NCBI RefSeq assembly: GCF_000026545.1
Contig: NC_011601.1
DNA from: Escherichia coli O127:H6 str. E2348/69
GTDB lineage: Bacteria; Pseudomonadota; Gammaproteobacteria; Enterobacterales; Enterobacteriaceae
Strand: one strand, 5' to 3'
DNA: 64,000 bases
In this document: in pieces, positions 7,496-10,909 of the stretch
Position numbering within the stretch: position 1 is the first letter of the stretch
How the letters are laid out: every line of letters starts with the position of its first letter
Translations under genes and position numbers: made by a program
Notes under the pieces: generated by a model
What the model saw: the letters and a program-made list of their open reading frames with translations, nothing else
Database searches by the model: none
Told to the model about the DNA's origin: nothing

Positions 7496-8533
7496 ATGTT
7501 TTCCGCATTGCGCCACCGTACCGCTGCCCTGGCGCTCGGCGTATGCTTTATTCTCCCCGTACACGCCTCGTCACCTAAACCTGGCGATTTTGCTAATACC
7601 CAGGCACGACATATTGCTACTTTCTTTCCGGGACGCATGACCGGAACTCCTGCAGAAATGTTATCTGCCGATTATATTCGCCAACAGTTTCAGCAAATGG
7701 GTTATCGCAGTGATATTCGGACATTTAATAGTCGGTATATTTATACCGCCCGCGATAATCGCAAGAGCTGGCATAACGTGACGGGAAGTACGGTGATTGC
7801 CGCTCATGAAGGCAAAGCGCCGCAGCAGATCATCATTATGGCGCATCTGGATACTTACGCCCCGCTGAGCGATGCTGACGCCGATGCCAATCTCGGCGGG
7901 CTAACGTTACAAGGAATGGATGATAACGCCGCAGGTTTAGGTGTCATGCTGGAACTGGCTGAACGCCTGAAAAATACGCCTACCGAGTATGGTATTCGAT
8001 TTGTGGCGACCAGCGGCGAAGAGGAAGGAAAATTAGGCGCTGAGAATTTACTCAAGCGGATGAGTGACACCGAAAAGAAAAATACGCTGCTGGTGATTAA
8101 TCTCGATAACTTAATTGTTGGCGATAAGCTGTATTTCAACAGTGGCGTAAAAACACCTGAAGCAGTAAGGAAATTAACGCGCGACCGGGCGCTGGCAATT
8201 GCCCGCAGCCATGGAATTGCCGCCACCACAAATCCAGGTTTGAATAAAAACTATCCGAAAGGCACCGGGTGTTGTAATGACGCAGAAATATTCGACAAAG
8301 CCGGTATTGCTGTACTTTCGGTGGAAGCGACTAACTGGAATCTTGGCAATAAGGATGGTTATCAGCAACGCGCAAAAACAGCCGCATTCCCTGCAGGAAA
8401 TAGCTGGCATGACGTAAGACTGGATAATCAACAGCATATTGATAAGGCACTTCCTGGAAGAATAGAACGCCGCTGCCGTGATGTTATGCGGATAATGCTA
8501 CCGCTGGTGAAGGAGCTGGCGAAGGCATCTTAA
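7496..8533 (+). CDS. iap: alkaline phosphatase isozyme conversion aminopeptidase (M28 family)
   Basis: 345-aa ORF with a signal peptide (AALALGVCFILPVHA) and M28 metal-ligand region (HLDT...DDNAAG...GEEEG). Divergent from cysD as in K-12. Confidence 0.93.
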   Translation: MFSALRHRTAALALGVCFILPVHASSPKPGDFANTQARHIATFFPGRMTGTPAEMLSADYIRQQFQQMGYRSDIRTFNSRYIYTARDNRKSWHNVTGSTVIAAHEGKAPQQIIIMAHLDTYAPLSDADADANLGGLTLQGMDDNAAGLGVMLELAERLKNTPTEYGIRFVATSGEEEGKLGAENLLKRMSDTEKKNTLLVINLDNLIVGDKLYFNSGVKTPEAVRKLTRDRALAIARSHGIAATTNPGLNKNYPKGTGCCNDAEIFDKAGIAVLSVEATNWNLGNKDGYQQRAKTAAFPAGNSWHDVRLDNQQHIDKALPGRIERRCRDVMRIMLPLVKELAKAS

Positions 8534-8593
8534 TGGGTTTGAAATGATTACTCCCTTGCCTGCAGGAAATCAATGCCACCAGAAACAGAGTAT

Positions 8594-8657
8594 AAAAAAG
8601 GGTGCAGGAGACCAAACCATCACAATTCAGTACGCGGGGTTTTACCCCGCGTGGTGG
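8594..8657 (-). other. hok mRNA 3' UTR: stem-loop plus putative fbi (fold-back) element ending in a U-run
   Basis: Minus strand after the hok stop reads CCACCACGCGGGGTAAAACCCCGCGTAC...GGTCTCCTGCACCCTTTTTT. There is a hairpin CGCGGGG/CCCCGCG (8633-8651). The 3' segment GGUCUCCUGCACCC can pair with the proposed 5' end GGGUGCUUGAGGCU at 10053-10040 (6 bp + 2-nt bulge + 6 bp, including G-U pairs). Confidence 0.55.
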
Positions 8658-8810
8658 CTACTTCTTCGATTCGTAAGCGAGAACTGCCTTAAACTCCATA
8701 CCACGTTCTCTGATACTCAACTCACACAACGAGTCGCCTACCATCAACGTGAATCCCAGTACTGTACAACACAGTACGATGATTGCCACAAGGGCATATT
8801 TTGTCAGCAT
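8658..8810 (-). CDS. Hok/Gef-family type I toxin (50 aa); coding frame intact but separated from its own SD, leader and promoter by the IS
   Basis: My own translation of the minus strand is [50 protein letters not shown]. It has an N-terminal TM helix, the conserved SLCE cysteine motif and a C-terminal AYES-K tail as in Hok of plasmid R1, and closely resembles K-12 HokE as I recall it. It falls below the 60-aa cutoff of the ORF track. Confidence 0.85.
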
Positions 8811-8813
8811 GTC

Positions 8814-9909
8814 TGTGTAAGTTCACAGAGATATTGCAATTGCCTCCGGATAAGTAAGGGGAGATTGCACTATGCAAATGCAGCATCTGATGGTTGGCTA
8901 TCCTAAGTACTACCAAACGGCCGATTATGCGTTGAGGCTTTCAGTGATGGCTGATATAGCAACAATGAGAATGAAGGCTCTGCACTTCTGGGATAAACAC
9001 GGTATTTCTGCAGCTTCTGAAGCCTTTGGCGTGTCCTGCCGCACGCTTTACTGGTGGCGTCAGTTACTGAACAAGGAAGGACCTGAGGGGCTAATCCCGC
9101 ACAGTAAGGCACCTCTGGTGCGACGAAAAAAACACTGGCATCCCGATGTGCTGAAAGAGATTCGACGCCTCAGGACAGAGCTGCCGAACCTCGGTAAAGA
9201 GCAGATTTTTGTTCGCCTGAAGCCCTGGTGCGAACAGCGCTATCTGGCCTGTCCGAGTGTTTCCACCATCGGCAGAATGATCGCTGCCGCACATGATAAA
9301 ATGCGGATGATACCTGTGCGTCTGGGATCGCGGGGGAAGGCACTGCTTGTCAAAAAGCGGTCTGCCAAACCCCGCAGGCCAAAGCACTACCGCCCGGTAA
9401 AGACAGGTGAGCTCATTGGGATGGACGCCATTGAGCTCAGAATGGGCGAACTGCGTCGCTATGTCATCACCATGATCGACGAATGCAGCAATTACGCGCT
9501 GGCGCTGGCTGTGCCGTCACTCAACAGTGATATCGTCAATCACTTCTTCAGCCGCGCAGCCCGGTTGTTCCCGGTCGGTATCAGCCAGATAATCACAGAT
9601 AACGGAAAAGAGTTCCTGGGAAACTTCGACAAAACGCTGCAGGAAGCCGCTATCAAACACCTCTGGACCTATCCCTACACGCCAAAAATGAACGCTATCT
9701 GTGAACGTTTTAACCGGACGTTAAGAGAGCAGTTTATTGAATTTAATGAGATTTTACTCTTTGAAGATCTGGCGCTATTTAACCAGAAGCTGGCGGAATA
9801 TCTGGTGCTGTATAACAGCAAAAGACCCCACAAGGCGCTCGCACTAATGACGCCCGTGGAATATATTTTAAAAGAGAATAAAAATTGCAATATGTGGTGG
9901 ACCCATACA
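8814..9909 (+). mobile_element. ~1.1 kb insertion sequence, single-ORF DDE (rve) transposase, IS481-like (IS3 superfamily)
   Basis: Imperfect terminal inverted repeats: left TGTGTAAGTTCACAGAGATATTGCAATT, and reverse complement of the right end TGTATGGGTCCACCACATATTGCAATT (TGT...ACA ends, about 20 of 28 matches, one indel). Flanked by a 5-bp direct repeat ATGTC (8809-8813 and 9910-9914). Confidence 0.8.
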
Positions 9910-10146
9910 ATGTCTTGCCTCCTTGCAAAGAAGAGACTAACATCCGAATTGCTTAGGTTCGAACGTAGGCCTCAGGTTGATAGAAATATCGCCTGGGGCT
10001 TTTGTCCATCTGGAACCTCGCGAATGCTTAACGCCAGACAGCCTCAAGCACCCAACGCCATTCTATACCTGTTAATTTTCCCTGCGATGTTCACCTTTAA
10101 ATGCCGGAATGCTGCTCGCAAAATAAAAACGCCCCATCATTTCTGA
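8872..10146 (+). CDS. IS transposase (HTH + rve/DDE integrase core); the ORF runs through the right IR, and the last ~79 codons are read-through into flanking DNA
   Basis: 424-aa ORF with SD AAGGGGAG 9 nt upstream. It has an N-terminal HTH region (GVSCRTLYWWRQ) and a DDE triad context (IGMDAIE ... ITDNGKEF ... YTPKMNAICERFNRTLREQF). No stop codon occurs before the IS end at 9909. Confidence 0.8.
   Translation: MQMQHLMVGYPKYYQTADYALRLSVMADIATMRMKALHFWDKHGISAASEAFGVSCRTLYWWRQLLNKEGPEGLIPHSKAPLVRRKKHWHPDVLKEIRRLRTELPNLGKEQIFVRLKPWCEQRYLACPSVSTIGRMIAAAHDKMRMIPVRLGSRGKALLVKKRSAKPRRPKHYRPVKTGELIGMDAIELRMGELRRYVITMIDECSNYALALAVPSLNSDIVNHFFSRAARLFPVGISQIITDNGKEFLGNFDKTLQEAAIKHLWTYPYTPKMNAICERFNRTLREQFIEFNEILLFEDLALFNQKLAEYLVLYNSKRPHKALALMTPVEYILKENKNCNMWWTHTMSCLLAKKRLTSELLRFERRPQVDRNIAWGFCPSGTSRMLNARQPQAPNAILYLLIFPAMFTFKCRNAARKIKTPHHF
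9915..10065 (-). promoter_or_regulatory. orphaned hok promoter and leader (tac 5' end, small mok-like leader ORFs, Sok target, hok SD)
   Basis: Minus strand reads TAGAAT (-10, 10065-10060), then 6 nt, then GGGTGCTTGAGGCTGTCTGG (compare the R1 hok 5' end GGCGCTTGAGGCTTTCTG as I recall it) ... CTTTGCAAGGAGGCAAGACAT. Joining across one copy of the ATGTC duplication restores AAGGAGGCAAGACATGCTGACA, that is SD plus 6 nt plus the hok ATG. Confidence 0.65.
9950..10004 (+). ncRNA. candidate Sok-like antisense RNA (~55-65 nt)
   Basis: Plus-strand promoter with -35 TTGCCT (9915-9920), 17-nt spacer and -10 TAACAT (9938-9943). Terminator hairpin GCCUCAGG/CCUGGGGC (9969-9999) followed by UUUU (10000-10003). 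The RNA is fully antisense to the hok leader. The ends are predicted, not measured. Confidence 0.5.
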
Positions 10147-10157
10147 CAGAGGCGTTT
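10127..10157 (-). terminator. intrinsic terminator downstream of cysH
   Basis: Minus strand reads AAACGCC-17 nt loop-GGCGTTT followed by TTATTTT, 18 nt after the cysH stop. Confidence 0.55.
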
Positions 10158-10174
10158 AATTTATCCGGCAATAT

Positions 10175-10909
10175 TTACCCTTCGTGTAATCCACATTCCC
10201 TTTTTAAGCCAAAGAAACGCGTTTCTTCTTCCGCCATGCCGGGTTCCCATTTACGGGTTGTATGGGTATCGCCCACCGATAAATATCCTTCATCCCATAA
10301 TGGGTGATATTTCAGGCCATGTTTTTGCAGGTACTGATAAATAGTTCGGTTATCCCAGTCGATAATCGGCAGCACTTTAAATACGCCACGCTGAATTGCC
10401 AGCACCGGTAAATTGGCGCGACTGCCGGATTGTTCACGGCGCAGGCCAGCAAACCAGGTTTGCGCATTCAGTTCTTTCAGCGCCCGGTTCATCGGTTCGA
10501 CTTTGTTGATGTCATTGTACTTTTCAATGCCTTCAACGCCCTGCTCCCACAGTTTGCCGTAGCGTGCTTCCTGCCAGGCGGCGCTTTCGGTAGCACGATA
10601 CACTTTCAGGTTGAGCTTGAGTTTGTCCGTTAACTCGTCAATAAAGCGGTAGGTTTCCGGGAACAGATAGCCGGTATCGGTGAGGATCACTGGAATATCC
10701 GGGCGAATCTGATTCACCAGATGCAGACTCACCGCCGCCTGAATGCCAAAGCTGGAAGAAAGTACATATTCACCGGGCAGATTATCCAGCGCCCAGGCTA
10801 CGCGGCCTTCAGCGTCCAGTTTTTCCAGTTGGGCGTTAGTTTCCGCCAGCGCCAGAATCCGGTCTACCTTTGGCAGTTCGTTCAGGGCGTTTAGATCGAG
10901 TTTGGACAT
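10175..10909 (-). CDS. cysH: phosphoadenosine phosphosulfate (PAPS) reductase
   Basis: Track ORF 10175..11062. The conserved start [21 protein letters not shown] is Met52 of that ORF, giving 244 aa. It has the C-terminal ECGLH motif. The upstream extension runs through a REP element and is not coding. Confidence 0.95.

Follow-up and report, generated by a model that had tools for sequence, protein, structure and literature searches.

The hokX/sokX locus, a type I toxin-antitoxin locus in the iap-cysH interval of the EPEC E2348/69 chromosome, is interrupted by an insertion sequence (IS) of the IS481 family. The best explanation of its present state, to which we give a probability of roughly 0.8, is that the IS splits hokX and spares sokX, and that the site was set by insertion upstream of a promoter. 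All coordinates refer to the window, the 64,000-nucleotide stretch of E. coli O127:H6 str. E2348/69 that was analysed; the E2348/69 match to it was 100% over 1,901 nt. The element is delimited by the following features.

8809..8813, unstranded: left target duplication ATGTC, which shares two bases (AT) with the hok start codon on the opposite strand
8814..9909, plus strand: IS481-family insertion sequence, ISKpn28-like, 1,096 bp, with ends TGT...ACA
8814..8841, plus strand: left inverted repeat; a TTGCAA box lies 19 nt in from its tip
9882..9909, plus strand: right inverted repeat, encoding ...NCNMWWTHT; a TTGCAA box lies 19 nt in from its tip
9910..9914, unstranded: right target duplication ATGTC

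The IS (8814-9909) reads TGTGTAAGTTCAC...GTGGACCCATACA, and a perfect 11-nt core, ATATTGCAATT, is common to both inverted repeats (8831-8841 and 9883-9893). The first-pass annotation had described imperfect inverted repeats of about 28 bp flanked by ATGTC. In the alignment, about 20 of the first 28 columns match, with one gap, and the sequence places the element ends and the duplications (8809-8813 and 9910-9914) exactly where they had been drawn. The boundaries can also be fixed without reference to the duplication: in numerous chromosomes and plasmids of E. coli with unrelated flanks, the full 1,096 bp match from end to end at 100% identity. The copies in O103:H2 hokX and in the IncFII plasmid hok locus show 0 mismatches to the IS, and identity to ISKpn28 is about 75% at the nucleotide level and about 80% at the amino acid level. 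A count of copies in the E2348/69 chromosome gave four places that match the IS, and the 5,426 E. coli genomes contain roughly 1,900. Every verified site carries a 5-bp duplication (ATGTC, AAACT, TCTCC, CCTCC, GCTGT, TTCGC, CGCTT, and others). The presence of 100% identical copies across sites and lineages indirectly suggests that the element was recently active. At hokX it entered by simple transposition, with duplication of ATGTC. A search of species-representative genomes with a 25-nt pattern from the right end gave only two matches, which were of no help for target statistics: a remnant in E. ruysiae and, in a Streptomyces assembly, a contig of 566 bp. An identification of the element as ISEcB1 of E. 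coli B was rejected; ISEcB1 is termed an IS3-family element, and hokX of E. coli B holds IS150.

The side of the IS that faces cysH adjoins the antitoxin gene and the ribosome binding site of the toxin.

9915..9943, plus strand: sokX promoter, with -35 TTGCCT (9915-9920), a 17-nt spacer, and -10 TAACAT (9938-9943)
9951..10009, plus strand: SokX antisense RNA gene, with a promoter and terminator of its own, by homology to the K-12 ncRNA sokX (b4701; NC_000913.3, 2887353-2887411)
9923-9919, minus strand: hok Shine-Dalgarno (SD) sequence GGAGG, within the severed hok leader

An intact Sok promoter had been proposed immediately after the duplication, and it does lie directly upstream of the K-12-annotated sokX 5' end, which aligns to 9951. 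The promoter matches the consensus at 8/12 positions, and for this reason a strict promoter scan missed it; the promoter call therefore depends on the K-12 annotation. With the placement taken from that annotation, the sokX promoter and gene are unbroken and begin directly after the duplication. SokX is probably still made in E2348/69, because K-12, in which foreign DNA extends up to the same point, keeps an annotated sokX RNA. The idea that the K-12 sequence to the left of sokX is a decayed IS end was dropped; its 134 nt have no similarity except ...ATACA.

Several other hok loci have an identical or related copy of the IS, inserted in the same orientation at the homologous nucleotide. In the cas3-hokX-cysH region of O103:H2, an IS that is 100% identical is flanked by the duplication ATGTC, and the flanks track lineage. 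The IncFII plasmid hok locus of E. coli and Salmonella has AAACT followed by TTGACC, a lambdoid-prophage hok locus has TCTCC followed by TTGCCT, and a hok locus near psiA in a plasmid leading region has CCTCC followed by TTGCAA. Klebsiella hok carries ISKpn28 at the same site and in the same orientation. Metagenome and viral scans added more hok loci with the IS at the homologous position. The flank of one distant element (L015) only looks hok-like, and its local leader profile was below significance.

The pattern extends beyond hok. At a second IS copy in E2348/69, which has the same orientation relative to its target, GCTGT is followed by TTGAAT-17-TATAAT, and the Rfam match to an AgrB-like antitoxin RNA starts 42 nt past the IS end; the distance from IS end to RNA start is the same 42 nt for sokX. 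Other promoter-like targets are a site that adjoins an Rfam ryfA match and has TTGACA, one immediately upstream of STnc100, and the TTGCAA box of the IS26 terminal repeat. A Pfam scan of the small ORFs beside the second E2348/69 copy and beside ryfA found nothing. A DinQ label came from precomputed matches only, and we therefore relied on the Rfam AgrB and ryfA matches.

Across 60 distinct right flanks, in which clusters from homologous loci are partly dependent on one another, TTG occupies positions +6 to +8 in 27, and it does so in 10 of the 11 clusters with a verified duplication. A -10-like hexamer follows at 16-18 nt in 20 of the 27 TTG clusters, as against 4.4% of 5,527 background TTG[AC] sites (binomial, 4e-22); with the hok loci excluded, the fraction is 12/16 (7e-14). 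Counted by site, 22 of 31 TTG-led sites have the hexamer 16-18 nt past the TTG hexamer, with spacers of 17 nt (n = 15), 18 nt (n = 5), and 16 nt (n = 2); other lengths between 8 and 29 nt occur 0-2 times each. The -10-like hexamer has the form TAnnnT; its sixth base is T in most sites, and 9 of the 16 non-hok sites have a G two bases before that. Only a few of the target promoters (sokX and AgrB) have an independently annotated transcript start. TTG is absent from 33 of the 60 flank clusters, many of which have no duplication or left end. These may be rearranged copies, and some may be real non-promoter insertions; one (L183) is within an NRPS/PKS gene, and another (L189) has TTAATT.

In the copies with this pattern, the right end of this ISKpn28-like clade lies 5 bp upstream of a sigma-70-type -35 hexamer, at about -42 relative to the start of transcription, and the transposase gene is co-directional with the promoter. 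A mechanism that selects such sites is probable, and the exact landing at hokX would be due to this habit of the family and not to luck. The target in the hok loci is Psok, whose -35 is the reverse complement of an AGGCAA box within or adjoining the hok SD. Because the Psok -35 overlaps the hok SD on the opposite strand, such an insertion amputates the toxin and spares the antitoxin promoter. Classical IS481 generates a 6 bp duplication with the consensus NCTAGN. The E2348/69 clade resembles ISKpn28 and the IS481 family in its single-ORF DDE transposase (rve), its length of about 1.1 kb, its TGT...ACA ends, and its short duplication; it differs from classical IS481 in that its duplication is 5 bp of any sequence, with TTG[AC] next to it and, at 17 nt, a -10.

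The target could instead be a mimic of the end of the IS itself (TTGCAA-N17-CA), with the transposase binding TTG[AC]AA and the promoter being incidental. Both inverted repeats bear TTGCAA 19 nt from the tip, and the consensus of the non-hok target hexamers, TTG[AC]AA, is equally near TTGCAA and TTGACA. The targeting of end-like sequences is also known for IS30 and IS911. However, the IS end has just CA where the targets have a full TAnnnT hexamer, and the annotated RNA 5' ends in two targets are at the position predicted from the promoter. In known end-targeting, moreover, the IS abuts the mimic at its tip and does not lie on the inner side. We consider the end-mimic reading doubtful.

Near-random insertion, with the recurrence at hok reflecting selection for toxin loss (adaptive disruption), appears less likely again. 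It draws on the hotspots near hok/sok homologues that Durrant et al. (bioRxiv 10.1101/527788), in the accessible part of that preprint, read as adaptive, and on other ISs in hok loci, namely IS150 in E. coli B hokX and IS150/IS186 in K-12 (PMC7232551). Loss of the toxin would nevertheless tolerate any position and either orientation, and across several hok paralogues the copies have a single orientation and occupy the same nucleotide with respect to the Sok -35. Non-toxin sites (STnc100, the IS26 end, and others) follow the same rule, and the IS150 of E. coli B sits elsewhere, within sok. Natural collections have already been selected, and insertion preference and survival are not fully separable in them.

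The pattern of promoter-upstream insertion also bears on the transposase gene, which has no stop codon of its own.

8872..10146, plus strand: transposase ORF, 424 aa, with no stop inside the IS, reading 79 codons into the hok leader

The gene is a single continuous ORF from 8872, without a frameshift, and encodes a DDE-type enzyme with Pfam matches to rve_3 (4.5e-14), rve (7.1e-11), HTH_32, HTH_28, and, weakly, LZ_Tnp_IS481. Database copies identical to the IS carry the label "IS481 family transposase", and PGAP annotates the gene at hokX as a pseudogene with a missing C-terminus. At other sites, the tail beyond MWWTHT varies with the flank. The roughly 105 distinct C-terminal tails include 26 of exactly 2 aa and about 24 in which tail position 3 is Cys (TGC/TGT). 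A -35 that starts with TTGA gives the transposase an in-frame TGA two codons past the IS end, and a target-supplied TGA was confirmed in the DNA at four sites. The hokX -35 is TTGCCT, and the ORF therefore reads on. We lean, by a little, towards a broader proposal: the ISKpn28-like branch of IS481 would be promoter-homing, reading sigma-70 architecture (-35 TTG.., 17-nt spacer, -10 TAnnnT) or bound RNA polymerase and inserting at about -42 in the orientation of the promoter, with a -35 TTGA completing the transposase and with the promoters of type I antitoxin RNAs (Sok, AgrB, and the ryfA partner), which are strong and constitutive, apparently favoured.

The consequences for the toxin follow from the features on both sides of the IS.

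8592..8657, minus strand: hok mRNA 3' region, a sequence reading with a stem-loop (8633-8651), an fbi-like box, and then a T-run
8600-8613, minus strand: fbi-like box GGTCTCCTGCACCC (hok strand), in the hok mRNA 3' region
8658..8810, minus strand: hokX coding sequence, 50 aa, intact; Pfam HOK_GEF PF01848, E 5.7e-10
9915..10053, minus strand: hok mRNA leader severed from hok, with its 5' end at about 10053; Rfam sok/hok-leader RF01794
9943-9941, minus strand: start ATG of a mok-like upstream ORF, within the severed leader
10060..10065, minus strand: probable hok mRNA promoter -10 TAGAAT, a sequence reading placed 6 nt upstream of where the Rfam model begins

The hokX ORF scored 39.1 bits against PF01848 (cut-off 22), and its product, WP_000956458.1, is identical to the protein of the uninterrupted Nissle allele. 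The first-pass annotation had put the IS exactly between the hok SD and ATG. Its description of the outcome holds, but the cut itself is staggered over -3 to +2 of the ATG, and the duplicated GACAT (hok strand) takes in the A and T of the start codon. As that annotation had also proposed, the sequence in front of the ATG is now the IS end, ...ACTTACACAGAC; the 30 nt before the ATG contain no SD, and the leader and upstream promoter region have moved beyond the IS, where the RF01794 match scores 104.6 bits. The same model gives 112 bits in the empty Nissle allele. The match in E2348/69 fades at the IS junction; the leader is structured and conserved and overlaps the sok gene.

The hok mRNA is split. 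The cysH side keeps the probable promoter, the 5' tac-like end, the Sok target, the mok-like ORF, and the SD, and the iap side keeps the ATG, the coding sequence, and the 3' fbi-like box. This box aligns with the leader 5' end, GGGUGCUUGAGGC, with 11 of 13 positions pairing, and the two are putatively termed fbi-like and tac-like after tac/fbi of R1 hok. The mok-like ORF of the empty allele, derived by hand from the junction sequence, is MLVSSLQGGKTC followed by a stop that overlaps the hok ATG. Its 12 codons are below the 20 aa floor of the ORF listing, and R1 mok is far longer. In E2348/69, this ORF continues into the IS (ORF 9779-9943).

Our best inference is that the insertion is a hok knock-out: Hok is presumably not made because the promoter and the SD are lost and the coding sequence is uncoupled from the upstream ORF. 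There is a slim chance that hok is still weakly translated, either from antisense transcription that runs from the hok promoter through the IS or from a start in the left end of the IS. The minus strand between 10053 and 8810 yielded no terminator-like site, the hok coding sequence is intact and the same as in uninterrupted alleles, and the inner TTGCAA of the left repeat points outward. Nevertheless, in addition to the lack of a nearby SD, the mok-like ORF now terminates within the IS, and the tac-like 5' end and the fbi-like 3' end are separated by 1.1 kb more. The outward TTGCAA has no -10 partner at the hokX junction (ACAGAC), and a strict promoter scan, which is a crude test, listed none that points outward from the left end of the IS.

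The uninterrupted arrangement was reconstructed by removing the element and one ATGTC. This 800-nt sequence is covered at a threshold of at least 80% in 1,106 of 5,426 E. coli genomes, with identity up to 99.1% and with iap, Hok/Gef, and cysH annotated. The predicted SD-ATG junction with a single ATGTC is present in Nissle 1917, which reads ...TTTTGTCAGCATGTCTTGCCTCC.... The IS-sokX junction is carried by 36 of the 5,426 genomes. That the IS-bearing allele is ancestral and the uninterrupted ones arose by precise excision is hardly credible, given 1,106 uninterrupted against 36 interrupted genomes, an IS that is 100% identical across lineages with differing flanks, and a target duplication that flanks it.

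Several mobile elements have defined targets: IS1397 and ISKpn1 insert in BIME/REP, IS110-family elements in REP, Tn7 at attTn7, and Ty3 at Pol III starts. These elements, yeast Ty3 among them, share with the ISKpn28-like clade an insertion at a fixed distance and in a specific orientation, with low harm to the host and maybe a safe haven. The signal of this clade differs from theirs in being the general sigma-70 promoter architecture, not a repeat or a single gene.

An IS inside a hok locus is already known. In the accessible part of PMC7232551, which cites Pedersen and Gerdes 1999, hokA, hokC, and hokE of K-12 are described as inactivated by insertion sequences, in agreement with the parallel drawn by the first reading of this locus; the same hokX locus is named there in the cysH-iap region. 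The K-12 and E. coli B loci are likewise chromosomal Hok-family loci that are IS-interrupted with the toxin frame intact. The IS150 of E. coli B hokX interrupts the sok/leader region at a distance of about 60 nt from the ATG, whereas in E2348/69 an IS481-family element abuts the Sok -35 and sok is whole. Durrant et al. (bioRxiv 10.1101/527788) reported hotspots of MGE insertion near hok/sok in E. coli and K. pneumoniae, and the ISKpn28 transposase is often near FlmC (PMC12248084). The accessible parts of both sources describe the same statistical link between mobile elements and hok loci in E. coli and Klebsiella. They do not assign it to a single IS family, an exact nucleotide, or a promoter, and they read it as adaptive disruption or as a means to mobilise neighbour genes. 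A promoter-upstream insertion rule for the IS481/ISKpn28-like family was not found in the open-access literature, and it appears to be undescribed.

The locus is a further case of an IS-disarmed chromosomal Hok toxin, here in a reference pathogen strain whose annotation shows just a pseudogene. The landing rule is simple and testable, and it concerns a common enterobacterial IS family, one of whose members, ISKpn28, is often present on plasmids for resistance and virulence. The rule would account for the reported hok/sok hotspots without selection, and from it one can predict the promoters and small-RNA genes at risk. The transposase gene is completed by the target that the element prefers, and the rule would be a bacterial counterpart of promoter-directed retroelement integration. 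If promoter-homing is true, it would account for hok loci as IS magnets in E. coli and Klebsiella.

Over 1,901 nt, the window is 100% identical to NZ_CP059840.2, LT827011, and LT903847, which assigns it to EPEC O127:H6 E2348/69. The interrupted locus lies between iap and cysH in the window, and hokX is the literature name for the hok locus of this region (PMC7232551). Its parts are arranged as follows.

cysD, (-) strand, first gene in the local order, before iap
7496-8533, (+) strand, iap
8658-8810, (-) strand, hokX ORF of 50 aa, Hok/Gef toxin (PF01848, E 5.7e-10)
Left-hand piece of the hok locus: GAC-ATG, intact hok coding sequence, 3' stem-loop, and a box complementary to the mRNA 5' end
8809-8813 and 9910-9914, ATGTC duplication flanking both element ends
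8814-9909, IS element of 1,096 bp, left end TGTGTAAGTTCAC, right end GTGGACCCATACA
9915-10053, (-) strand, right-hand piece, hok leader: mRNA 5' end (GGGUGCUUGAGGC...), Sok-complementary region, mok-like ORF, and Shine-Dalgarno sequence (SD, AAGGAGG)
9915-9920, (+) strand, sokX -35 TTGCCT, first base directly after the duplication
9938-9943, (+) strand, sokX -10 TAACAT, 17 nt from the -35 and 7 nt upstream of the aligned RNA start
Spacer of 260 nt between the element and cysH
cysH, cysI, and cysJ, (-) strand, beyond the spacer

A domain search found integrase-core and HTH domains in the large ORF starting at 8872, and identical copies of the element elsewhere are annotated by PGAP as an IS481-family transposase. 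On alignment, the inverted repeats at the two ends are imperfect and have one gap; they share a perfect core of 11 nt, ATATTGCAATT. The element boundaries are fixed by three independent lines. The complete 1,096 bp recur at 100% identity in many chromosomes and plasmids of E. coli, where the flanks are unrelated. Of 5,426 genomes, 1,106 contain an uninterrupted match to an 800-nt reconstruction from which the element and one ATGTC were removed, and the annotation there reads iap / Hok-Gef / cysH. The empty allele of Nissle 1917 reads ...GTCAGCATGTCTTGCCTCC..., with one ATGTC. The IS with a 5-bp duplication described in the first-pass annotation is thereby confirmed. No CRISPR array or cas genes are present between iap and cysH (7496-10175), and hokX/sokX is the sole occupant of the interval; this arrangement is common to the 1,106 genomes. 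The corresponding interval holds cas genes or CRISPR remnants in O103:H2, K-12, and E. coli B.

The hok mRNA is severed by the insertion. The hok-leader/sok model of Rfam (RF01794) scores 112 bits against the uninterrupted allele, over the ~140 nt that lead up to the hok ATG; its score against E2348/69 is 104.6 bits, and there the alignment breaks down at the IS end. The mok-like upstream ORF has 12 codons in intact alleles, with a stop overlapping the hok ATG at the reconstructed junction, and continues into the IS in E2348/69 to a total of 54 aa. The 3' box of the left-hand piece pairs with the mRNA 5' end at 11/13 positions and may be read as an analogue of the fbi/tac pairing. The element had been placed exactly between the SD and the ATG; the two are indeed parted, but the duplicated GACAT (hok strand) takes in bases 1 and 2 of the start codon. 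As had also been claimed, the hok ATG is now preceded by IS end sequence (...GTGAACTTACACAGAC) without an SD, and the only GGAGG is 33 nt away, inside the IS. When the IS left end was scanned for consensus promoters, none facing outward was found. The Hok protein (WP_000956458.1) is identical in E2348/69 and the uninterrupted alleles; the interrupted gene shows no decay.

K-12 lacks the hokX coding sequence, yet carries the annotated small RNA sokX (b4701, 2887353-2887411). Aligned to the window, its 5' end falls at 9951 and its 3' end at 10009, which bears out the proposal that the Sok promoter lies on the far side of the IS, beginning right after the duplication. Homology between K-12 and hokX strains ends just past the hok start codon, 1 nt away from the IS site, and unrelated DNA extends up to the same point. 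Therefore, the promoter is apparently independent of upstream sequence. That Sok is left intact and orphaned in E2348/69 is well supported at the level of sequence. The K-12 homology (NC_000913.3 2887220-2887352 against window 9905-9920) ends at ...ACA|CATGTCTTGCC, and no similarity to the IS is seen in the 134 nt on the cas3 side; the break may lie there by coincidence or because of an earlier IS-mediated rearrangement.

The same insertion recurs at other hok loci. The O103:H2 copy, in a hokX flanked by cas3 and cysH, has 0 mismatches in 1,096 nt and occupies the same nucleotide with the same ATGTC. The flanks are of the K-12 type in O103:H2 and of the Nissle type in E2348/69; with an identical IS, the two insertions are read as separate and recent. 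The IS-sokX junction is present in 36 of the 5,426 genomes. A 100% identical element lies in the hok locus next to repA of an IncFII plasmid, and a 98% copy occupies the same place in a Salmonella Poona plasmid hok; their duplication is AAACT rather than ATGTC, so these are independent events. Because the transposase ORF overruns the element, its C-terminal tail reports the flank. Further hok sites were predicted from the tails of database homologues and looked up, which confirmed a lambdoid-prophage hok in E. coli, a Klebsiella hok with ISKpn28 itself (a protein cluster of 2,770 sequences), and a plasmid leading-region hok near psiA. At all these sites, the IS left end faces the hok coding sequence, and the right end is followed by the 5 duplicated bases and then TTGCCT, TTGACC, or TTGCAA. 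In E. coli B, in contrast, the hokX locus (REL606 2772561-2776813) carries IS150 at another position, inside sok/leader, with a 3-bp duplication, GGT. An IS421 (IS4-like) copy and a CRISPR remnant lie on the opposite side of that locus. A 566-bp contig of a Streptomyces malaysiensis assembly (NZ_BAAAHF010000206.1), in which the right end of the IS, an enterobacterial element, is followed by a hok-leader-like flank, is most likely contamination.

Scanning the 18-nt right end over metagenome and viral contigs gave 161 further loci and, with the earlier loci, 60 distinct right flanks. TTG occurs at +6 to +8 in 27 of the 60 flank clusters (~1 of 60 expected by chance) and in 10 of the 11 with both ends and a verifiable 5-bp duplication; the hexamer that it opens is TTG[AC]NN. 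A -10-like hexamer (>=4/6 matches to TATAAT, A2 and T6 required, 16-18 nt past the TTG hexamer) is present in 20 of these 27, compared with 4.4% of 5,527 other TTG[AC] sites on the same contigs (binomial 4e-22), and in 12 of 16 after removal of hok-related clusters (7e-14). As a base-composition control, each exact spacer from 8 to 29 nt was scored over 31 sites: 17 nt gave 15 hits, 18 nt 5, 16 nt 2, and all others 0-2. The target geometry is that of a sigma-70 promoter. The TTG is absent from about half of the flank clusters, many of which also lack a duplication or left end and may be rearranged. Two exceptions, L183 (inside an NRPS/PKS gene) and L189 (TTAATT), make the rule a preference and not an absolute. 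Statistically, the rule is strong.

Promoter-like targets are also found outside hok. At both targets with independently annotated RNA 5' ends, sokX and an AgrB-like RNA (RF02891), the RNA starts 42 nt past the IS end. The latter is the target of the second copy in E2348/69 (LT903847.1 4303079-4307125), between an FtsX-domain gene and selU; this copy adjoins a dinQ-type small toxin gene, with the antisense RNA downstream, and its target is GCTGT|TTGAAT-17-TATAAT. Another copy (locus L184, 796-1143), flanked by sseB and a rhodanese gene, is 42 nt away from the ryfA RNA 5' end (RF00126, 320 bits) and faces a perfect TTGACA on the opposite strand, which may belong to the antisense partner of a ryfA-type toxin locus. 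A recurrent site in 22 loci (L032 5211-5418, L136 5295-5498, and 20 similar) is 12 nt upstream of the STnc100 small-RNA model (RF02076), with the target GAG[CT]A|TTGAAA-17-TAAATT; these loci belong to tRNA-adjacent islands and IMG/VR contigs. At L006 (2502-3640), ISKpn28 has duplicated ACTAT and abuts TTGCAA in what remains of an IS26 terminal repeat; aac(3)-IVa follows 41 nt downstream. In a 93%-identical variant between iss and iroB on ColV-type IncF plasmids (L005 and 20 metagenome loci, cluster c2), the left end is damaged and the duplication is absent. This variant resembles a single old insertion passed on by inheritance, and it probably explains most of the 1,118 E. coli records with 90-95% identity to the IS.

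The transposase gene is finished by its target. At the right-repeat tip, the frame reads ...ATG TGG TGG ACC CAT ACA, with no stop inside the IS. The duplication and a -35 starting TTGA supply NNN NNT TGA, giving a 348-aa protein with two site-specific residues. Among ~105 distinct tails (proteins P0001-P0229), 26 have exactly two residues and ~24 have Cys (TGC/TGT) at the third position; at four sites, the DNA itself shows the TGA. In databases, proteins of this family are 348 to >570 aa long, according to insertion site. The -35 at hokX is TTGCCT, so the ORF (8872-10146) reads on for 79 codons, hence the PGAP flag "incomplete". A transcript that stopped at the Sok terminator would likewise be without a stop codon.

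The evidence best supports a target-directed insertion, one that would silence hokX and leaves sokX intact; the earlier interpretation is supported, with the hok knock-out as its probable consequence. The splitting of the hok SD and ATG is an apparent by-product. Within the hok SD, or adjacent to it, is an AGGCAA box, and the Sok -35 is its reverse complement. RNA polymerase or the open complex could serve as the landmark for insertion, or the DNA might be recognized directly. A serious rival is that the target mimics the element's own end, since TTGCAA occurs in both inverted repeats, 19 nt from the tip; however, the end has only CA at the place of the full TAnnnT in targets. Selection for toxin loss, an adaptive reading proposed by Durrant et al. 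(bioRxiv 10.1101/527788) for hok/sok hotspots, may contribute to the persistence of interrupted hok alleles, but it does not account for an insertion that keeps to one nucleotide and one orientation and obeys the same rule at promoters unrelated to toxins.

Chromosomal hok loci interrupted by an IS are textbook cases (Pedersen and Gerdes 1999, summarised in PMC7232551), and public records already cover the hokX locus, its allele in E. coli B, and the genome of E2348/69. Therefore, the E2348/69 case adds one documented example. A 2026 preprint on Hok diversity reads the many IS proteins near hok as transfer vehicles; an ISKpn28 transposase near FlmC is noted in another preprint (PMC12248084), and Durrant et al. 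describe mobile element hotspots at hok/sok. In open-access text, we found no paper that ties the hok-IS association to one IS family, a nucleotide-exact position, or promoters. What is added to the first-pass annotation is the target rule, which is easily testable.
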